A program made the translations under genes and the position numbers. Below, in pieces: positions 54,603 through 64,000 of a DNA stretch of 64,000 nt. Source of the DNA: an uncultured Actinomycetes bacterium (GTDB taxonomy: Bacteria > Actinomycetota > Thermoleophilia > UBA2241); NCBI GenBank assembly GCA_963725665.1, contig CAVRZA010000006.1, forward strand, positions 128,001-192,000, in the 5' to 3' direction. How positions within the stretch are numbered: position 1 is the first letter of the stretch; every line of letters begins with the position of its first letter. Below the pieces are notes generated by a model. The model saw nothing but the letters and a program-made list of their open reading frames with translations. It searched no databases and had not been told where the DNA came from.

Positions 54603-55748
54603 CTACGCCGGGCGGCCCCACTCCCTCGCCACGGTGGCCCAAGCCCTGTCGTAGACGGCGCCGAACGAGCCGAGATCAGCCAGCCACTGGCCGTGGGCGA
54701 GCTGCAGGTCGCTGCGCGCGAAGGAGCGCTCGAGCGTCGGCAGGTACTTCCAGGCCTCAGGTTCGGCCGACTGAGTCCCGAGACGCTCGGCGACTCCACG
54801 TTGCACGCCGGGCCGCAGACAGAAGTCGAGGAAGGCATGAGCAGCGAGGGGGTTGGCCGTCGCGCGTGCCACGCACAGGACACGGGTGTCGATCTCGAAC
54901 CCGTCGGCCGGCAGGACGAAGTGCACACCGCCGCCGGGTGCACTCCTTGCTGCCCTCAGCGCCTGGGAACTCCAGCAGACGGCGACCGGCGCGCCGCCCC
55001 TGTCCGGGCCGGGCTCTCGCAGATTCGTCTTGAGAGCGATCAGGCGTCCCACAGCGCGATCGATCTGGCGCCTGTCGGTCGAATCGAGGGGGAGCCCCAG
55101 GGAGAGGAGCCCGATACCGATGACCGAACGCCCGCGGGCGTCGACTCGCACACCTCCTCGGAACCGCGGCTGCCAGAGGTCGGCCCAGGTGCGCGCCGGC
55201 GCACCGCCGAGCGCTCCCGGCTGCACGGCCAGACCGAGTGTCTCGAACTGGAACGGGACCGAGTACCTCGCCGGGTCACCGCGATCGTACGGCGGCGCAC
55301 GGAACGCTCCCTGCACGTAGTCGAAGTTGCCCACGAGTGTCATGTCGAGCGGCAGGAGCAGGCCCTCGCCGGCGAGACCGGGGACGAGACCGTCGGCCAT
55401 CACGAGGACGTCGTACGAGGCGACGCCCCTCAAAGACTCGGGCAACGCCACACCGTCGGCCGGCGCGGCCGCGCGAACGGCCACACCGGTGCGCCGCGAA
55501 AAGGCCTTCAGGACTACGGCGTCGATAGGGGCGGCTGGCGCGAGGAGCCGCACCGCACCGGTCGGGGAAGGTGTCGGCGACGGCGGCAGCGTCGAGCCCG
55601 ACGGCGCGAAGGTGGCTCTGCTGCAAGCGCTCGGCCAGTCGGCCAGGATAGTCGCTGAGAGGCCGGCGAAAACGAGCCGACGTACGAACGCCGCACGCGT
55701 CAGAGTGACGCCGTCGTCTTGCGCCCCGCTCTGAGATCCAGAGGCCAC
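54603..55748 (-). CDS. PotD/PotF-like extracellular solute-binding protein (orphan)
   Basis: GGAGG RBS then GTG. YDVLV, LLLPLD...GNF, PYD...YSVP, TWADLW.P, AHAFLDF. Confidence 0.75.
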
Positions 55749-55865
55749 GTCCCTCCCCCCTGATTGCGTACCTGATCCGATTGTACGCGGGGTTGACGCC
55801 TCTACACGGAGAGGATCACGAAGCGCACGCACGATCAACACGGTGCCTCAGGGTGTCTGAAACGC

Positions 55866-57884
55866 TCAGAGCGTGATGGGCCGCGCCAGTCGCGGACTCC
55901 CCATGTGATTGAACGCGCACAGGTGCTTCCGGCGGCGACCCACGACCAGGCCGGGAGCCACCAGCAGCGCACCGATCGCCACAGCCGCAAGCCCACCGGT
56001 GAGCCACAGGGGCCGGCGGGGCGAGCCGCCTGCGGCGCTCCCCCCGCCGGCCCCCGTCGTGCCACCGCTCGGTACCGAGCCCACGCGCACGCCGACCACG
56101 GCCACGGCCCCCGACGACGCCTGCCCGGTCGCGCTGCCGGTTGGCGGACCCGAAAGACTCTGAGTGGCACCTTGGCCGCCGGCCGCGGTCCCACCGCCTG
56201 AGGTCTGCCCTGCCCCCGACCCGGCCCCGGTGCCGGTACCGGATCCCCCACCGGAACCCGATCCCGACCCGGATCCCGCACCCGAGCCACCGATGCCGCC
56301 GACGTCGAGCGAGCCGCTTCCCGGCGTGTTACCCGTCCCTGTCGCTGCCCCGCCGTGGCCGTCCTTTCCCTTAGCGGTCGCCGACCGGTAGGTGATGGTG
56401 AGGTCGTACAGGGTCGGGGTCAACCCACGATCGCTCGTCGTGAGCGAGACCGTGTACTTAAGCTTCGTGTCCGTGAAACCCGTGGGGAACTTGTAGACTC
56501 CCGCACCGCCACTGAGGGCCACTCCGGAGGCGCCCTGCGGACGCCAGACGCCGTCGGATCCCGCGTACCAGAGCCTCAGGCTCGTGCCCGCCGGCACGTC
56601 GGCGTTCCAGTGCAGCGCGAGGAACCGCTTACCTTGCTTGGGACGCCCGCAGTCGATCCAGCGCGAGTCCATCTTGGCGCCGCCGTTGTTGCCGAGCAGC
56701 GCCACCGTGCGTGTGGCCCGGTCGCAGAGCAGGAGCGCACCGTCGGCCGCTCGCGGCGTACCACTCGCATCGGGCGCCTTGCCGCTGATGGCCTCGGCGG
56801 CGCTCGGGTCGTCGAGGCTGCCGCCTACCGGCGGGTACTCCCAGAGGATGCTCGAGGCTGTCCAGCCGTGCAGGTCGCCGTTGATACGGTAGTCGCCGCT
56901 GCGTACGGCGATGACCCTGTGGTTGCCGCCGTCGACGATGAGCGTCCGGTCGTTCGACAGCCGGACGGCGCCCGCGGGTGTGTCGAGGTAGCCCGGCGCC
57001 GAGCCGGGGCTGCCGGCGACGCCGTACTGCCAGCGGAGCGCTCCGGCGGAGTCCACCGCGAATACGCGATGCTGGCCGGCGTCGGTGATGAGAGTGACGC
57101 CGCCGGCGTGCCGCTGCGCCTGGACGGGCCGCAGCAGCCCGCCCGGCGCCGAGTCGGCGGACAATTCCCAGACGACGCCGCCGCCCGAGCCGCCCGTGAC
57201 GAGGTTCGCCGACCAGCTCACCTCGACGACGCGCGGCGCCCCCGCGGCGGCGTCGGCGATGAGGACCGTCGGCGCCCCGCCGGTGCCCTGGGGCACGTAC
57301 TCTGCGCACACGGGCTGGAGCAGATGACCGGGTGAGGCACCAGGCTCGCCGGTCACCCCGTACTGCCAGACGATCTCCTTGGTCTCGTAGGACACGGCAA
57401 AGACGCGATCAGCGCCAGGGTCGGCGATGAGGACGTAAGAGCTCGAGCCGACGACGATCCGCCGCGCCCAGCAGGGAGCGCTCAAGCCGGGGCCCGCGTA
57501 CGACCAGACGACCCGTGTGAGGGTCTGCGACGAGCCGTCCTCGCCCAGGACCAGCACGCTGGCGCCGCACGTGAGCAGCACGTCTCCGACGCCGGCCCAG
57601 GCGACCGAGCGTACCGCGCCGGCGCTCGCGCCCTCGGACGGCACCTGCGCCGACCAGATGGGCCCGCGTTCGCCGATTCGCAGCGACTGGTCGGCGGCGT
57701 CGGCGCGGTACTGGGTGACGACATCGAGACCGGATGCTTCGTCCCTCGAGCGATGGGCGAAGTCAAAGGAGTGGCCGGGCACGCCGAGCCTGTAGGAGAC
57801 GAGGTCGGCGGCCCCAGCCACCGAGACGCAGGTCAGCGCGAGGACGACCGCAAGGAGGAGACACGTGAGGACCCGTACCCTCAC
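55866..57884 (-). CDS. Secreted NHL/beta-propeller repeat protein with Gly/Ser linker and C-terminal membrane anchor
   Basis: Signal peptide; repeats LI.D....RV..V.....WQYG..G..G..PG.L..P; GS-rich stalk; TM followed by RRRK. GTGA overlap with the ATPase stop. Confidence 0.8.
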   Translation of the reverse strand: MRVRVLTCLLLAVVLALTCVSVAGAADLVSYRLGVPGHSFDFAHRSRDEASGLDVVTQYRADAADQSLRIGERGPIWSAQVPSEGASAGAVRSVAWAGVGDVLLTCGASVLVLGEDGSSQTLTRVVWSYAGPGLSAPCWARRIVVGSSSYVLIADPGADRVFAVSYETKEIVWQYGVTGEPGASPGHLLQPVCAEYVPQGTGGAPTVLIADAAAGAPRVVEVSWSANLVTGGSGGGVVWELSADSAPGGLLRPVQAQRHAGGVTLITDAGQHRVFAVDSAGALRWQYGVAGSPGSAPGYLDTPAGAVRLSNDRTLIVDGGNHRVIAVRSGDYRINGDLHGWTASSILWEYPPVGGSLDDPSAAEAISGKAPDASGTPRAADGALLLCDRATRTVALLGNNGGAKMDSRWIDCGRPKQGKRFLALHWNADVPAGTSLRLWYAGSDGVWRPQGASGVALSGGAGVYKFPTGFTDTKLKYTVSLTTSDRGLTPTLYDLTITYRSATAKGKDGHGGAATGTGNTPGSGSLDVGGIGGSGAGSGSGSGSGGGSGTGTGAGSGAGQTSGGGTAAGGQGATQSLSGPPTGSATGQASSGAVAVVGVRVGSVPSGGTTGAGGGSAAGGSPRRPLWLTGGLAAVAIGALLVAPGLVVGRRRKHLCAFNHMGSPRLARPITL

Positions 57885-58969
57885 GGCCTCTCCTCTATCA
57901 CATGGACCGCCTCGACCGGGATCTCGAGCGTCACCGGCGCCCCTACCGACAGCGCGCTGTCGGCCGCGTAGGCCCGCGGTAGAAACGCCACGAGGCCGGC
58001 GGCGTCAAGCTCCACAAGCCAGCCCGTGGAGGTGGAGCGCAGGCCGGCGACGCGAGCGCTTACGAGGTTCCTACTCGAGACGTCCGCCGCCTCCGATGCC
58101 CTCACTACGATGCGGTCGGCGCGCACGACGACCGTCACCGGCCCGCGTGCTGGACACGCGGCGTCGAGCGTGAGCCCACCCGTCAGCCTCACCCGGCAGC
58201 CGCCGCCGTTGGCCTCCGCCACCGCCGGGAGGACGTTGCGCGCTCCCGTGAGACGGGCCACGGCAGCGCTGGCCGGACGGTCGAGAATGTCGTCTGCGGT
58301 ACCCGACTGGGCGACGAGGCCGTCGACGAGCGCGACGCAGCGCGGCGCGACGGCGACGGCCTCGTCGAGACTGTGTGTCACGTGAAGCACGGTGAGACCG
58401 AAGCGCTGGTGGACGGAGCGCAGCTCGTCCTGAAGCTCCTCGCGCGCCCGCTGGTCGAGGGCGCTCAGGGGCTCGTCGAGCAGCAACGCGTGCGGCTGCA
58501 CGGCGAGCGCCCTTGCCAGCGCGACGCGCTGCCGCTCGCCGCCCGACAGCGTCTGCGGCTTGCGCGTCAGGGACTGATCGATCCCCAGAGCCTCGGCCAA
58601 GGCGCGCACGGCGGCGCTGTCGCGCCGCCGTCTGGACCAGGGTAGGAAGCGCCTGAGACCACGATCGCGACGCACTTCGCCGCCGAAGGCGATGTTGCCG
58701 GCGATGTCGAGGTGCGGAAAGAGCAGGGCATCCTGCCCGACGAGACCGACGCCGCGCCGCTCGGGCGGCAGCGACGTGACCTCACGGCCAGCGATCGTCA
58801 ACCGGCCCGCAGCGACGCCGCGCAGGCCGGCGATCGTCTCGAGGAGCACGCTCTTGCCGGCGCCGCTGCGCCCCACAACGGCCACGTACTCGCCGTCGCC
58901 GACCTCGAGGTCGAGGGGACCCAGCGTGAAACCCCCCGCAGAGACCACGACTGCCTCGGCGCGGATCAC
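57881..58969 (-). CDS. wtpC: Tungstate/molybdate ABC transporter ATPase (WtpC/ModC-like) with TOBE-like C-terminus
   Basis: GRSGAGKS, LPPERR, LSGGERQR, LLLDEP, HVTH; operon context. Confidence 0.85.
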   Translation of the reverse strand: MIRAEAVVVSAGGFTLGPLDLEVGDGEYVAVVGRSGAGKSVLLETIAGLRGVAAGRLTIAGREVTSLPPERRGVGLVGQDALLFPHLDIAGNIAFGGEVRRDRGLRRFLPWSRRRRDSAAVRALAEALGIDQSLTRKPQTLSGGERQRVALARALAVQPHALLLDEPLSALDQRAREELQDELRSVHQRFGLTVLHVTHSLDEAVAVAPRCVALVDGLVAQSGTADDILDRPASAAVARLTGARNVLPAVAEANGGGCRVRLTGGLTLDAACPARGPVTVVVRADRIVVRASEAADVSSRNLVSARVAGLRSTSTGWLVELDAAGLVAFLPRAYAADSALSVGAPVTLEIPVEAVHVIEERP

Positions 58970-59808
58970 GGCGAGCTCCTATTCCCCAGCACCAGGCGCA
59001 CCGCGATGAAGACGGCCAACGCGACGAGAACAATGAGCAGCGCCACCGGTTGGGCCGCCTCGAGGCCGAAACCTTCGAAGCGCTCGAACACGAGCACCGG
59101 CACGGTCTTCGGGTTGTAGGCCAGGATCACGACCGCGCCGAACTCACTCATTCCTCGTGCCCACATGAGCAGCGCCCCGGCCAGCACGCCGCGACCGGCC
59201 AGCGGCAGCGCCACGCGCGCGAAGGCGACGCCCTGGGAGGCGCCCAGCGTACGCGCGAGTTGCTCGTAGCGCGGATCAACCAGCGCGAACGCCTCGCGCG
59301 CGGTGTCGACCAGGAACGGGAGGCTGACGAAGAGCATGGCGACCGCGATGCCGGCCAGGGTATCGGTGAACGTCACGCCGAGATGCGCGAAACCCCTCCC
59401 CAGCACTCCCGTACGGCCGAACACCAGCAGAAGGGCGATGCCGGCCGCCGTGTGCGGGAACACGATCGGCAGGTCGATGATGGCCTCGACGAGACGCTTG
59501 CCGGCGAACGAGCGCCGCGCCAGCACATAAGCGAGGGGCACGCCGCCGATCGTCGCCAGCCCGGTCGCGATCAGAGCCGCCTCCAGCGTGACGATGAGTG
59601 CGTCTCGCACGTCGGCCTCGCGCGCCGCCTGCATCAGGTCGCCGAAGCCGGTGCGGGCTACGAGCGAGACGAGCGGCGCGGCCAGGAACACGAGCACGAC
59701 GAGGCCGAGCGCCCAGGCGACGATGGTGAAGACGGCGGGACGCCGGCGGGGCCGGCCGGCCCCGCCGGCGTCCCGCGCCTGCATGGTCCGCGTCTCGTTC
59801 CCCCTCAC
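58966..59808 (-). CDS. wtpB: Tungstate/molybdate ABC transporter permease (WtpB/ModB-like)
   Basis: IDLPIVFPHTAAGIALL, ARTLGAS, WARGMSEFGAVVILAY.P; GTGA overlap with the wtpA stop. Confidence 0.88.
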   Translation of the reverse strand: MRGNETRTMQARDAGGAGRPRRRPAVFTIVAWALGLVVLVFLAAPLVSLVARTGFGDLMQAAREADVRDALIVTLEAALIATGLATIGGVPLAYVLARRSFAGKRLVEAIIDLPIVFPHTAAGIALLLVFGRTGVLGRGFAHLGVTFTDTLAGIAVAMLFVSLPFLVDTAREAFALVDPRYEQLARTLGASQGVAFARVALPLAGRGVLAGALLMWARGMSEFGAVVILAYNPKTVPVLVFERFEGFGLEAAQPVALLIVLVALAVFIAVRLVLGNRSSP

Positions 59809-61040
59809 GGCGTGGCTCCCACCCGCAGCGGAGCACACAACGGCCGCAGCATGGCCGGCAGCTTGTCCATGTGGTCCACGCGCGCCGGTGTCACCGATGG
59901 CTGGTAGGCCTCGGCGAGGATCCGGCGCCCCTCAGGTCCGAGCAGAAACGCAACGAAACGCTCAGCCTCGGCGTGGTCGGGCGCGTTACGCGGGATCGTC
60001 ACCGCGTAGGCGATCGGCGCGCCGCCGAACACGGGCTTGACACTCGCGAACCGCTGGAACGCGATGGCGACTGCCACGCGCGCATACGCAGCCGCGTAGC
60101 GTGGCGAACCCAGGTCGATCTGCGCTGGCAGGCGGACGAAAGGCAGCTCGTGCTGACGCACGACGCTCTCGTACTCGAATGCGCAGTCGAGGTCGCCCGA
60201 TTCCAGCAGGGCCACAAGCTGGATGCTCGCCCCGCGGAGCACGAGTCCCGAGCCGGCGACCCCCTGCAGCAACTCGGGCACGTCGATCACGTTGACGCCG
60301 TCCTTGCCCGTTACCGTCACCGGCGGAGTGAAACGTCCGACGGTGAGATCCTCGAAGAGATGGTCGTCGCGGTACTGTCGCTCGGCAAGCTGCAGGACCA
60401 TCAAAGCACGGTAGCCGGCGGCGTCGAAGCGCGGGTCGGCCAAGCCGAAGCGCACGCCCTGCGTGGTGACAGCCTTGACCCAGTCGCCCGAGCGGAAGAG
60501 CGGCGCGAAGCGGCTGGCCGGCGAGTAGGCGAGTACCATGCGGTTCGTCGCGAACACGGCATACCAGTCAGCCGTCGGTGTCGCCCCACCGCTACCCGCC
60601 GGGTCCTCCATCAGCACCGTGATCAGGGCCGCGTCGGCCGAGGCCAGCACGTCGAAGCGCCGATGCAGGTCCGTCACCTGACGGATAACCTGGATGCTGC
60701 CGTGACTCTCGGTCTGCACCTCGGCGCCGGGATGCGCCTTCTCGTACGCTGTGGCCAGGCGGTCGAAGGGGATGATCAGGCTGCCGGCGTCGATGACCGC
60801 GAGCTTGTCGGCCGACGAGGAGCCGCAGCCGCTCGCGACGCTGGCCGCGGCAACCACGGCTGCTGCGGCCAGCGCCGCGAGCGCCGTGAACAGCACTGCA
60901 CGATGGAACGGCCCAGCGACCCGGCTCACGACCGGCGGGATGCCACGCGGCGCCGACCCGACGGCGCGTGCCGACCCGACGGCGCGTGCCGACCCGACGG
61001 CGCGTGCACATCCTCTGCGGCGTCTGCCCCAAGGGCCCAC
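59805..61040 (-). CDS. wtpA: Tungstate/molybdate-binding lipoprotein (WtpA-like); start uncertain (61040 or 60929)
   Basis: Lipobox ASGC; AGSL..PF, E.HGS.Q.IRQVT, DV.ASAD..LI, FATN.MVLAY, DP..DAAGYR, AFEYESV, I.YA.TIP.NA. Confidence 0.88.
   Translation of the reverse strand: MGPWGRRRRGCARAVGSARAVGSARAVGSAPRGIPPVVSRVAGPFHRAVLFTALAALAAAAVVAAASVASGCGSSSADKLAVIDAGSLIIPFDRLATAYEKAHPGAEVQTESHGSIQVIRQVTDLHRRFDVLASADAALITVLMEDPAGSGGATPTADWYAVFATNRMVLAYSPASRFAPLFRSGDWVKAVTTQGVRFGLADPRFDAAGYRALMVLQLAERQYRDDHLFEDLTVGRFTPPVTVTGKDGVNVIDVPELLQGVAGSGLVLRGASIQLVALLESGDLDCAFEYESVVRQHELPFVRLPAQIDLGSPRYAAAYARVAVAIAFQRFASVKPVFGGAPIAYAVTIPRNAPDHAEAERFVAFLLGPEGRRILAEAYQPSVTPARVDHMDKLPAMLRPLCAPLRVGATP
60952..61005. 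repeat. 3 x 18-bp perfect tandem repeat
   Basis: GCCGACCCGACGGCGCGT at 60952, 60970 and 60988. Confidence 0.95.
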
Positions 61041-61047
61041 GGCGGCC

Positions 61048-62061
61048 TCACTCGATCCTCAGCAGAACCTTTGTGATACGGCCGATCGCCAGGTCGTCGG
61101 TCAGCCCGGGCCCCACGAGCCGCAGCGGGAAGTCCTGTGGGGGAAGCTCGCCGCCGTCGACCTTGCCGGCAAGCAGAACATCCTTGTGCTTCATGACGAA
61201 GCGGGAGCTCAGGAACGCCTTGGCCCCGGTGGAGCCGATCAGCTCGATGGTGTAGTCGCGTGCCGCCAGCTTGCGGTTGAACGCGCCGGCCCCGTGGGTG
61301 TGGCCGTCGTCAACCGAGCCCACGACGAGCCAAAGAGGGATGCCCTCCCAACGCTGGCCCTCGGAGTCGACCCACCCCGAGCCGTGGCAGCCGGGCGACG
61401 CGCAAGAGACGTACGAGGCACGCGTGATGGTAGAACGCGTCTTGCCTTCGATCGAGGCGCTCCACTCGCCCATGGCGCGCTTGACCTCGATGCGATCGAC
61501 CAGCTTGACCGACCAATGGCCGTCGACCACGACGTCAGGCCCCTTCTCGGCCAGAACGAGGCGCAGCGGACCCTCGTCGGGTGATAGTGGCTTGCCCTCG
61601 TGCGCGTAGGCGATGAGCAGCGTGAGCTCGTCGACCGGCGGACGTTCGGCGCTCGTGGCGGGATCGAACGTGGTGAACCCGGCCCCTGCCACCTGACCGT
61701 TGGAGAACGTCATCCCGTAGCCGTCCTTGGCCAGGACGGTGACACCCTCAGCGGAGCCGACCCCGCCGACCGCCTCCACGAGCGACTGAAGGGGGACGCC
61801 GGTGTACTCCTGTGGCGCGGTGATAACCCCCACACTGCTCTTCATGCCGGCGTACCCGGTGAACGAGGGCAGCTGCCGCAACTGAGCCATGGAGTAGGTC
61901 ATGGTGCGCTCGCCGCCCACGACCGTGAGCGCGGTCGGCCCGGCGACGCTGGTCGCGCTGCTCCCGGGGCTCGACTGTCCGGACGCGCAACCGATGACTC
62001 CCAGCACAGTGAGGACGATCACGACGGCGAGACCGCCGAAAGTGTACCTGCGAGCAAGCAT
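61048..62061 (-). CDS. Exported lipoprotein with two molybdopterin-oxidoreductase-like (Oxidored_molyb) domains
   Basis: GAGGAGG RBS; lipobox VIGC; YTGVPL..L, LAKDGY, IAY...GKPL...GPLRLV, SVKLV.RIE; second domain WEGIPLW...FPLRLVG. Confidence 0.75.
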   Translation of the reverse strand: MLARRYTFGGLAVVIVLTVLGVIGCASGQSSPGSSATSVAGPTALTVVGGERTMTYSMAQLRQLPSFTGYAGMKSSVGVITAPQEYTGVPLQSLVEAVGGVGSAEGVTVLAKDGYGMTFSNGQVAGAGFTTFDPATSAERPPVDELTLLIAYAHEGKPLSPDEGPLRLVLAEKGPDVVVDGHWSVKLVDRIEVKRAMGEWSASIEGKTRSTITRASYVSCASPGCHGSGWVDSEGQRWEGIPLWLVVGSVDDGHTHGAGAFNRKLAARDYTIELIGSTGAKAFLSSRFVMKHKDVLLAGKVDGGELPPQDFPLRLVGPGLTDDLAIGRITKVLLRIE

Positions 62062-62163
62062 CGCCGACCCCTCCTCGGCAGCCATCTTGCGGCGGCTTCG
62101 GGCGGGCGGCGCCTCCCGGCGCCGCCCGCCCGCCGCACCTACCATCCCGGAGACCGGGATCTC

Positions 62164-63249
62164 TCAGAGACGGGGCAGAAGCTGGATCTTGGTGACGCGA
62201 CCGATCCACTGCGAGCTAGACAGTTTCGGTCCGACCAACTTCAATGGGTAGCTGGAGGTCAGCTCCTTGCCGTCGAGCTTGTTGGCCAGGATGAGGCGCT
62301 CCTTGTTGATGATGAAGCGCGACTTCATGATCACCGAGCGGCCGACGGCGTTGGCGACCTTGATGCGGTAGCCGCGCAGGGCGAGCGCCTCGTTGAAGGC
62401 GCCGTAGCCGCCGTGACCCTTGCCCCCGTCGACCTTGCCGATGCAGAGGAAGAACGGCACGCCGGTCCAGACGCGCCCCTTGGCGTCCTTGTAGCTCGCG
62501 CCGTGGCAGCCTGGCGCGGCACACGACAGGAACGACTCGCGGTCGAGCGTGTAGGTCTGCCGTGTGTGGTTCTTGCGCCACAGGCCGTACATGCGCACCT
62601 TCCAGTCGGGAAGCTGCTGACCGATCTGGATGCTGCCAACCCACTTCACGAGCAGGTGGCCGTCGACAACCTGACCCGACGACGTCTGCGCGACGAAGAT
62701 GCGCAGAGGGCCGTCGCCGCTGGGCGGCCCGGGGATGGGCAGATAGCCAGGGCCCTGCCCGTAACCGACCACCATGGTAAACGGCTGGGTCGGCGTGACT
62801 TGGTCGCCGGTTGCCGGATCGTAAGCCGTCCAGGCGCCGTTCACGGCCTGGTCGTGCGTGTAGGTCATACCGTAGTTGTCGGTGCCCAGGACGGTGACCC
62901 CGTCGGTAGGTCCGATCCCGCCGACGAGCGTGGCCAGGTCGCCGATCGAGACGCCCTTGATGGGGTCGGGCCCGAATATGTTGCCGGCGCTGTTCTTGAA
63001 GCCGGCGAAGCCCTCGTAGGGCGTGAGGGCCTGGAGCTGCGTCATGGTGAGCTGCACCTGCGTGCCGGTCGGACCGGTCACGGTGAGGACCGGAGCCTCG
63101 TCGGCCCGGGCGACGGCGGGGTGGACGGGCGCAGCCGTCCACCCCGCCGCCACGACCACCGCCAGGAACAGGATCAGGGCGAGGATGGGCGCTGCGGCCT
63201 GCGGCCGTAGCGCCCATCGCACCACCCTCCTTGTGCGTTTCTCAGCCAT
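62164..63249 (-). CDS. Secreted protein with two Oxidored_molyb-like domains (paralog)
   Basis: Signal peptide; GV.I..L...VGG, GTDNY, GPLRI, VKWV.SI; WTGVPF...YPLKLVG. Confidence 0.75.
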   Translation of the reverse strand: MAEKRTRRVVRWALRPQAAAPILALILFLAVVVAAGWTAAPVHPAVARADEAPVLTVTGPTGTQVQLTMTQLQALTPYEGFAGFKNSAGNIFGPDPIKGVSIGDLATLVGGIGPTDGVTVLGTDNYGMTYTHDQAVNGAWTAYDPATGDQVTPTQPFTMVVGYGQGPGYLPIPGPPSGDGPLRIFVAQTSSGQVVDGHLLVKWVGSIQIGQQLPDWKVRMYGLWRKNHTRQTYTLDRESFLSCAAPGCHGASYKDAKGRVWTGVPFFLCIGKVDGGKGHGGYGAFNEALALRGYRIKVANAVGRSVIMKSRFIINKERLILANKLDGKELTSSYPLKLVGPKLSSSQWIGRVTKIQLLPRL

Positions 63250-63261
63250 CACGACCACCGC

Positions 63262-63999
63262 CTAGAAGATGAGTTTGATGGTCACGACCTGAGAGGCCGA
63301 GAGCTTGCCGAAGAACGGCTTGATGAACGACCCCACATAGCGGTACGGGCCCTCGTCGGTCGAGAGCATCGCGCCCCCCTTGAGGCAGGCCACTATCCAG
63401 CCCTTCTTGCCGACGATCGTCTTGCTGCTGATCGTCACCTTGTAGCCGTCACGGGCGATGAACTGGATCTTGTAGCCCTTGAGGGCCCGCGCCTTGTTGA
63501 AGGTGCTCGGGAACTTGTCGTCGACCAGGCCGACCAGCTTGTAGAGCGACTGCCCGCGGTAGACCGCCTTCAGCGTCGGGTTGATGTCGCCGGCCTTGGT
63601 GCCGTCCCAGACCACCCCGCTTGGGAACTTGGCGTAGGTGATCGTGCGCTTCAACTTGCCGTTGAGGGTGAGTTTTGTGGTGTAGTCGGGATAGACCGGC
63701 TTGCCGAGCTCGATGCGCAGCACGCCGGCGGGCTTCTGCTTGCCCGTCAGATTGTCGCTGCAGATCTTGGCCGGCCAGGCCGGCTTCCACGAGTAGGTGC
63801 CGTCGCCGTTGTCGGTGATCGAGGGAATCGGTGCGAGCTGCCCGCCGTCAACGCGATCGGCCAGGACGATGTCGTTCTTGTAGGCCACCTGCATCGACGT
63901 GAGCGCGGCGGTGAAACCGTCGCAACCGACGATCGTCACCGGGTAGTCCATGCCGGCGAGGTTGCGGTTGAAGGTGGCCGCGTCGGAGTCATCGGCCAG
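63262..63999 (-). CDS. Oxidored_molyb-like repeat protein, 5' end beyond the window
   Basis: Frame open to the window end (LADDSDAATFNRNLAGMDY). Repeats VGLVDD...TFN..A..GY.I...A.DGY, EGPYR. Confidence 0.75.
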   Translation of the reverse strand: MADDSDAATFNRNLAGMDYPVTIVGCDGFTAALTSMQVAYKNDIVLADRVDGGQLAPIPSITDNGDGTYSWKPAWPAKICSDNLTGKQKPAGVLRIELGKPVYPDYTTKLTLNGKLKRTITYAKFPSGVVWDGTKAGDINPTLKAVYRGQSLYKLVGLVDDKFPSTFNKARALKGYKIQFIARDGYKVTISSKTIVGKKGWIVACLKGGAMLSTDEGPYRYVGSFIKPFFGKLSASQVVTIKLIF

Positions 64000-64000
64000 C

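Follow-up and report, generated by a model that had tools for sequence, protein, structure and literature searches.

The window analysed here is a stretch of 64,000 nucleotides (nt) from an uncultured Actinomycetes bacterium of the class Thermoleophilia, positions G000:C6:128001-192000 on contig CAVRZA010000006.1. Its end is occupied by an operon in which the genes of a WtpABC-type ATP-binding cassette (ABC) importer for tungstate or molybdate are preceded by those of three exported proteins, here called P1, P2 and P3, whose modules resemble the sulfite oxidase (SUOX) fold. All genes lie on the minus strand and are transcribed in the order P1, P2, P3, wtpA, wtpB, wtpC and the gene of a 672-residue NHL-propeller protein (Table 1; operon positions are counted within the window). 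A preliminary description of this DNA, made from its letters alone, had reported a single minus-strand run with three GTGA stop/start overlaps, and all three overlaps are present, at the wtpA/wtpB, wtpB/wtpC and wtpC/NHL junctions. The beginning of the operon lies beyond the window and was read from L001, an 18-kb stretch that comprises the last 2 kb of the window and 16 kb past its end.

Table 1. Features of the operon in transcription order, with positions in the window.
Feature	Position (strand)	Description
Continuation past the window edge	64000..64000 (-), placeholder	Moco/Tuco riboswitch and 5' part of P1 (L001 2001-2843)
P1, 3' two thirds	63262..64000 (-)	Secreted; three shortened SUOX-like modules, without Cys-His motif
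P2	62164..63258 (-)	Exported; domain 1 Cys-less and SUOX-like, domain 2 with CX4CH
P3	61048..62145 (-)	Lipoprotein; domain 1 SUOX/PruR-like without Mo-ligand Cys, domain 2 shortened SUOX-like
wtpA	59805..61040 (-)	Tungstate/molybdate-binding lipoprotein (predicted)
wtpB	58966..59838 (-)	ABC permease
wtpC	57881..58969 (-)	ABC ATPase
NHL-propeller surface protein	55866..57884 (-)	Start overlaps the wtpC stop

The importer is best defined by its binding protein. WtpA exceeds the cut-off of the curated NCBIfam model TIGR03730 (270.3 bits versus 242.75), stays under that of the stricter NF003196 (275.6 bits, cut-off 355) and matches WtpA/ModA relatives in the Protein Data Bank (PDB) entries 3k6u, 2onk and 3cg1 with E-values of 6.2e-65, 2e-58 and 3.4e-40, respectively. 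WtpB and WtpC have the wtpB and wtpC models as their top NCBIfam matches (275.2 and 278.1 bits), but both remain under the cut-offs of these models (340 and 440); they also match BPD_transp_1 and ABC_tran, respectively. The earlier naming of the three genes as wtpABC agrees with these matches. The true start of wtpA is probably later than the start of its longest open reading frame (ORF). The 5' part of this ORF contains a perfect 18-nt tandem repeat of 3.1 copies (window 60952-61007), which translates to three ARAVGS units and probably lies upstream of the true start codon.

P3 matches the Pfam family Oxidored_molyb (PF00174) with 51.5 bits, above the cut-off of 24, whereas P2, which is 36-37% identical to P3, scores 17.5 bits, under the same cut-off, and P1 has no Pfam match. 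The three modules of P1 are recognised by the profile of the P3 family (A2) with E-values of 2.7e-13, 2.9e-10 and 1.1e-9. Of the three proteins, which had been presented as Oxidored_molyb-like paralogues, P3 alone passes the Pfam threshold. Of 8,000 candidates scored, 299 belong to the P3 family at E <=0.001, and those that have a name are called 'molybdopterin-dependent oxidoreductase' or YedY.

The AlphaFold (AF2) model of P3, built from 119 sequences, has a pLDDT of 83.2 and consists of two domains, residues 67 to ~224 and ~227-363. Domain 1 was compared with known structures by Foldseek and VIA-align, and the latter places it on chicken sulfite oxidase (3hbg) with a Z-score of 15.3 and a root-mean-square deviation (rmsd) of 2.6 over 137 residues, on SoxC with Z 15.2 and on YedY (1xdq) with Z 11.3. 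The similarity to structures of PruR spans Z 14.3-15.1, with the best value for 7kp2 (rmsd 3.2, 134/138 residues). The closest structural match of domain 2 is a modelled YlaL (Z 10.4), followed by beta-grasp folds at about Z 5, and sequence profiles show a weak relation of this domain to the SUOX domain, in its C-terminal half. Among PDB sequences the profile of the P3 family finds only weak matches (E 0.024 or worse), so that the link of the family to SUOX and PruR is drawn from structural and hhalign profile comparisons. The fold was expected to be that of a molybdenum cofactor (Moco) domain, and the alignment of P3 domain 1 to both sulfite oxidase and PruR bears this out.

The feature by which domain 1 departs from the enzymes with this fold is the loss of the molybdenum ligand. 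There is no Cys in domain 1 of either P2 or P3, as had been noted from the sequence, and in the hhalign alignment it is S103 of P3, at the tip of an invariant K-S-S-x-G hairpin, that is paired with the Cys of the YedY-like protein encoded in the same genome. A solved precedent for a secreted, Cys-less SUOX-fold protein that binds a pterin, a role previously proposed here by analogy, is PruR. It binds pterins via N102, Y104 and W160, carries Pro-Trp at the position of the Cys and, in Proteobacteria, has the c-di-GMP enzyme DcpA as its partner, as described in PMC11194511. The N-x-Y of the PruR pocket aligns to an invariant D141-x-Y143 of P3; the Pro-Trp is absent from P3, where the aligned stretch is K-S-S-x-G.

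The mode of export is likewise not that of a cofactor-loaded enzyme. P3 has a lipobox and P2 a signal/anchor peptide; the lipobox Cys is found in 107/108 family members that have an N-terminus, 53/108 have no twin arginine anywhere in the signal region, and a loose twin-arginine translocation (Tat) pattern fits 12/108. Judged from these N-termini, export is of the Sec/lipoprotein type and cofactor-loaded Tat export is not a feature of the family, in line with the lack of a clear Tat motif in the two complete proteins that had been remarked on before. Of the three ordinary Oxidored_molyb proteins encoded elsewhere in the genome, one has a twin-arginine signal. The genome also has three PF01794 matches, all of which lie elsewhere in the genome, so that an MsrQ-like redox partner is indeed missing from the window. 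P1-P3 cannot be ordinary Moco enzymes, and the names widely attached to the P3 family, given above, are in need of correction.

P1, described earlier as a partial protein, is not merely cut by the window edge. Its gene, which would encode ~545 residues in three modules, extends 843 nt past the window end. In this assembly a frameshift splits it into two ORFs that are two frames of one gene: L001 1989-2843, which includes the signal peptide, and L001 1262-2023. The switch of frame is located in a short GC run, between L001 2077 and 2136 (window-equivalent ~64077-64136), and may be due either to an assembly error or to a real break. The relative in locus L008, a single unbroken ORF, has a signal peptide as well as three modules. 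The ATG of P1 at L001 2843 is preceded by the Shine-Dalgarno sequence AAGGAGG. The relatedness of P1 to the other two proteins, as read from the sequence at the outset, is upheld by the P3-family profile.

A riboswitch of the Moco/tungsten cofactor (Tuco) family RF01055 lies upstream of P1 at G000:C6:193069-193193 (L001 3069-3193, window-equivalent 65069-65193), 226 nt upstream of the start codon in Rfam coordinates. It matches the full model (positions 1-135) with 61.5 bits versus a gathering threshold of 36 and an E-value of 6.7e-13, and the positions of the RNA stem named P3 are deleted in the alignment. This stem is missing from 58/176 Moco RNAs, a class that goes with tungsten-cofactor metabolism (Regulski et al. 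2008, PMC2408646). Because it is also missing here, the riboswitch is assigned, from its sequence, to the tungsten-cofactor class; an element of this kind had been envisaged in the preliminary description. A promoter and terminator scan upstream of P1 found neither, and folding of the P1 leader gave no clear expression platform (z -1.86). The genome contains six RF01055 copies in total. The other five precede a ModABC-MobB unit, a TupA-like ABC unit with MoaA, two units of the xanthine dehydrogenase family and an NAD aldehyde dehydrogenase. The last of these, an NAD-dependent enzyme preceded by the riboswitch at G000:C7:34321-34441 (L109), may be a tungsten-sparing substitute for AOR that is switched by cofactor supply.

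The association of P3 with the importer is conserved far beyond this genome. A scan with one genome per species returned 224 relatives, and the best 80 loci were examined; these belong to Actinomycetota (29, mostly Thermoleophilia), Chloroflexota (49, mostly Anaerolineae) and Eisenbacteria (2). WtpA follows within 3 kb downstream on the same strand, and WtpB after it, in 68/70 loci that have at least 2,500 nt downstream, which carries the linkage to tungsten/molybdenum transport across two phyla. The WtpA proteins of Chloroflexota pass the TIGR03730 cut-off. P1- and P2-like genes stand beside P3 in the Actinomycetota set only. One cultured organism, Longilinea arvoryzae KOME-1, carries the P3-wtpA module.

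Two kinds of control stand in front of the module. The riboswitch is present on the same strand in 22/23 Actinomycetota loci with at least 2,500 nt upstream, L045 being the exception. Among the 51 loci of Chloroflexota (49) and Eisenbacteria (2), 22 have a regulator with an ArsR-type helix-turn-helix (HTH) and a periplasmic binding protein (PBP)-like domain within 250 nt upstream, and in 6/7 Chloroflexota loci tested that lack this regulator RF01055 stands right before the P3-like gene. In the regulator of L036 (8951-9967), for example, the PBP-like domain joined to the HTH is similar to the one at the C-terminus of archaeal MoeA fusions. By its domain composition the fusion protein is a candidate tungstate/molybdate-sensing regulator, presumably similar to the tungstate regulator TunR. 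With the riboswitch in Actinomycetota and the regulator or RF01055 elsewhere, two unrelated controls of tungsten/molybdenum type govern the same P3-wtpA gene pair. The conserved unit is an exported SUOX-like protein together with wtpAB under tungsten/molybdenum control.

The distribution of AOR points to a demand for tungsten. The genome studied here has 13 AFOR_N matches, equivalent to about 12 genes for tungsten-type AOR. Within the class, 51/301 genomes contain the P3 family, all of them in two families (f1 and f4), in which AOR is found in 52/55 and 49/55 genomes, respectively; 50/51 genomes with the P3 family also have AOR, a count that is confounded by kinship. The co-occurrence with tungsten enzymes that had been anticipated is thus seen at the level of families, the P3-family genes being confined to the two AOR-rich families of the class. 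One AOR-family gene of the genome, at G000:C3:130649-131256, gives a match that falls into two pieces separated by an in-frame TGA; a frameshift, a gene that is broken or a codon for selenocysteine could each account for it.

The best reading of P1-P3 is that they are extracytoplasmic helpers of tungsten/molybdenum acquisition, a role that is favoured because it fits the operon, its controls and its distribution. That the locus as a whole is an acquisition operon for tungsten (or molybdenum) with exported SUOX-fold helpers we hold to be, on balance, probable. The tungsten-cofactor-class riboswitch would control one transcript that encodes P1-P3, WtpABC and, in this lineage, the propeller protein. 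P1-P3 would reside outside the cytoplasmic membrane of a monoderm cell, with P3 tethered as a lipoprotein, and would capture or chemically condition tungsten or molybdenum species ahead of oxyanion binding by WtpA. In P2 and P3, domain 1 may keep a PruR-like pocket, and domain 2, if it binds haem, would make the helpers redox-active. The gene order, the control elements, the conserved synteny, the folds, the loss of the Mo-ligand Cys in domain 1 and the Sec/lipoprotein-type export are observed, whereas the helper role, the nature of the ligand, any haem and the hand-over to WtpA are inferred. A modelled complex of WtpA with P3 residues 67-365 has a median score of 0.46, one control giving 0.44, and speaks neither for nor against.

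Several observations weigh against this assignment. The neighbourhood was followed in the best 80 of the 224 relatives, and both exceptions to it are the Eisenbacteria loci, which have a P3-like gene without WtpA. Since the riboswitches of the genome also precede Mo enzymes of the xanthine dehydrogenase family and an NAD aldehyde dehydrogenase, riboswitch control alone is no mark of uptake. The specificity for uptake is further weakened by the recurrence of the shortened modules in large surface proteins with PKD, CBM96 and NosD domains.

Domain 2 carries a second unusual feature, a Cys-His motif (C248-X4-C253-H254 in P3 and SCAAPGCHG, also CX4CH, in P2). C253-H254 is invariant in 97 copies of domain 2. 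The first Cys is present in 67/80 P3-like genes and replaced by Gly in the other 13 (Gly-X4-CH). Among the P2-like genes, those of the window and of 23 loci have CX4CH, those of L003-L006 CX2CH and that of L002 CX3CH; spacings of X2, X3 and X4 are all listed for haem c motifs (PMC11492766). Cytochrome c maturation (Ccm) genes are represented in the genome by three PF01578 matches, and a Ccm match was found in 50/52 distinct genomes tested. The two genomes without a match (L059 and L069) both have the Gly variant, so that Ccm is missing from 0/41 tested genomes that keep the first Cys and from 2/11 tested Gly genomes. These two Anaerolineae are close relatives, and the loss amounts to about one event; one of the assemblies is a single 3.3-Mb contig.

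The invariant Cys-His pair suggests a covalently bound haem without showing it, and the chances that domain 2 holds one are about even. Besides the loss of the first Cys in 13/80 P3-like genes, a haem is disfavoured by the nine Gly-form genomes that do have a Ccm match (one of them weak and under the cut-off), by the low confidence with which the motif loop is modelled and by the absence of any match to a cytochrome c family of Pfam. The wider module family, which has 680 representatives at E <=0.001, points in the same direction. Among 342 domain copies taken from the best 149 of these representatives, 233 have no motif, 85 a single Cys-His, 19 CX4CH and 5 CX2CH, so single Cys-His outnumbers C(X2/4)CH (24 copies). 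A second His accompanies 107/109 copies with Cys-His and 164/233 copies without it, which is weak co-variation. The co-variation of H284 with Cys-His, clean in a sample of 10 domains, was dropped as an argument after it proved weak in the 342 copies. The idea that the Ccm system exists for these proteins alone was rejected in view of the ordinary cytochromes c and the haem-copper oxidase that the genome also encodes.

Two further observations concern the Ccm genes and the modules. In some relatives the Ccm genes adjoin the importer operon. In one of them, L008 (14058-19936), wtpC is immediately followed by another riboswitch, which heads MoaC and MOSC/MoCF genes, and this moa operon runs with small gaps into ccmE and ccmF; the arrangement may be a linkage or plain synteny. 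In the genome studied, it is the Tup-MoaA unit with its riboswitch that has Ccm genes a few kb downstream. Many of the 149 representatives of the module family are surface proteins of 900-3,100 residues with PKD, CBM96 or NosD domains; P0241-P0282 reach 3,139 residues with 4-9 module copies and also carry PKD, CBM96 and NosD/beta-helix domains. The shortened SUOX-like module appears to be a general extracellular building block.

Several more specific accounts of P2 and P3 were weighed. The preliminary description saw them as non-catalytic binders; the link to tungsten/molybdenum transport and the Cys-less domain 1 agree with this, but the CX4CH motif may make the proteins redox-active. In the most ambitious version of the helper role, P2 and P3 would be extracytoplasmic redox proteins of a new type that combine a Moco-less SUOX/PruR pocket with haem c in a shortened SUOX module. 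They would mobilise extracellular tungsten or molybdenum, for instance from thiometalates or from mineral-bound or pterin-bound forms, and hand the oxyanion to WtpA. We regard this version as unlikely. Slightly less doubtful is a variant of the helper role in which the Cys-His and a nearby His bind a metal ion or a thio-oxyanion directly, without haem, and the proteins are passive binders. It would explain why Cys-His is invariant when 13/80 genes can do without the first Cys, why single Cys-His is the commonest form (85/109 motif-bearing copies among the best 149 of the 680 representatives) and why the two genomes without a Ccm match keep Cys-His after losing the first Cys. What speaks for haem instead is that the Cys-Cys spacing varies among X2, X3 and X4 with the His always next, which is the pattern of haem c, and that Ccm is never missing where the first Cys is kept, although the contrast of 0/41 with 2/11 Gly genomes stems from about one event.

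Two accounts dispense with metal uptake altogether. P2 and P3 could be true extracytoplasmic oxidoreductases in which electrons pass from a SUOX pterin domain to haem c, as in SorAB and SoxCD, with a substrate unrelated to uptake. Their dependence on the tungsten or molybdenum cofactor would then account for the shared riboswitch. The fold matches include sulfite oxidase, SoxC, SorT and SorA, a C(Xn)CH motif follows the SUOX-like domain, other riboswitches of the genome precede Mo enzymes, and in a weak hhalign alignment (E 0.0036, probability 9%) the canonical Mo-ligand Cys is matched by C248 of domain 2. Domain 1, however, has no Cys, the family is of the lipoprotein type without conserved twin arginine, and we know of no route by which Moco could be inserted outside the cell. 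Shutting down an enzyme when its own cofactor is plentiful would also make little sense, provided that the riboswitch works as an OFF switch. The near-constant adjacency of wtpAB in two phyla would be left unexplained, and the first Cys of the motif is missing in 13/80 genes. Such enzymes are, in our judgement, decidedly unlikely. Still less probable is that P2 and P3 are pterin sensors of the PruR kind, which would bind a small pterin excreted by cells, signal to a membrane partner and capture no metal. Domain 1 does match the PruR structures at the Z-scores given above, and the pocket N-x-Y aligns to the invariant D-x-Y, but the hallmark Pro-Trp has given way to K-S-S-x-G, and PruR lacks the second domain with Cys-His. 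The conserved neighbours are wtpA and wtpB, and Pfam named no signalling domain among the neighbours scanned (the window and L036, L039 and L049).

The propeller protein, the product of the last gene of the operon, consists of a signal peptide, a six-bladed NHL propeller (~69-397), a beta-rich domain (~400-501), a disordered Gly/Ser/Thr linker of 120 residues (506-625) and a C-terminal membrane helix (627-656), so that 'stalked surface beta-propeller', as it was first called, is a fair description of the AF2 model (pLDDT 77.6). The propeller superimposes on 6xg7 with Z 27.9 and rmsd 3.0 over 271 residues (VIA-align). The protein has no Pfam match, PF01436 being found in some homologues, and an Atlas search with it gave a value of 0.85, a lead only. 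The gene is present in 5/80 related loci, L002-L006, which are the closest ones. It was initially counted as part of the system, but it is a lineage-specific addition outside the conserved core. A gene for a PotD-like solute-binding protein lies 24 nt downstream of the propeller gene on the minus strand (window 54603-55841). It is probably outside the unit, since a tblastn search of the 80 related loci gave no counterpart.

Tungsten enzymes of the AOR family are central to anaerobic carbon turnover, and to our knowledge little is known about the acquisition of tungsten at trace levels beyond the ABC importers themselves. Conserved surface helpers, present in dozens of species of two abundant phyla of soil and sediment, would provide a testable handle on this process. 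They would also extend the SUOX fold beyond enzymes and PruR signalling, possibly to a new haem-binding module. If redox mobilisation outside the cell were true, it would constitute a principle of metal acquisition comparable to reductive iron uptake and widespread in anaerobic Thermoleophilia and Anaerolineae.

The importer itself is similar to WtpABC and the archaeal ModA-WtpA systems (2onk, 3cg1 and 3k6u) in its binding protein, which is followed by permease and ATPase. We know of no SUOX-fold accessory genes in the characterised systems of this type, and literature searches returned no description of SUOX-fold helpers with tungsten/molybdenum importers. Exported SUOX-fold proteins are not mentioned among the genes regulated by the Moco/Tuco riboswitches without the P3 stem in the available part of Regulski et al. 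2008 (PMC2408646). Domain 1 of P3 (32.9 bits) and of the L036 protein (49.6 bits) has a weak local match to NCBIfam NF041762, 'GEGP motif-containing diheme protein'; with a cut-off of 300, both are far from being members, but the match hints that other SUOX-like modules combine with haem c sites. A literature search for the NF041762 family found no paper.

Two groups of SUOX-fold proteins invite closer comparison. P2 and P3 share with SorAB, SorT and SoxCD an extracytoplasmic SUOX-fold domain and a possible haem c site (fold Z 13-15, with weak NCBIfam matches to SoxC, SorA and SorT). These enzymes have a Cys-ligated Moco, are exported via Tat and possess a dimerisation domain and a separate class I cytochrome. 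Unlike them, P2 and P3 have a Cys-less domain 1 and no conserved Tat signal, and their motif sits inside a shortened SUOX-like module. PruR, with structures from Agrobacterium, Vibrio and Klebsiella (7kos, 7kou, 7kom, 7kp2 and 7rkb), is similar in being a secreted, Cys-less SUOX fold of ~130-150 residues per module, with the N-x-Y of its pocket in the place of the invariant D-x-Y. Transport-linked relatives of PruR are not mentioned in the available part of a 2026 pterin review. PruR is a single-domain protein, whereas P2 and P3 have a second domain with Cys-His, and the members of the P3 family are lipoproteins of monoderm phyla whose partner genes are wtpAB rather than that of DcpA.

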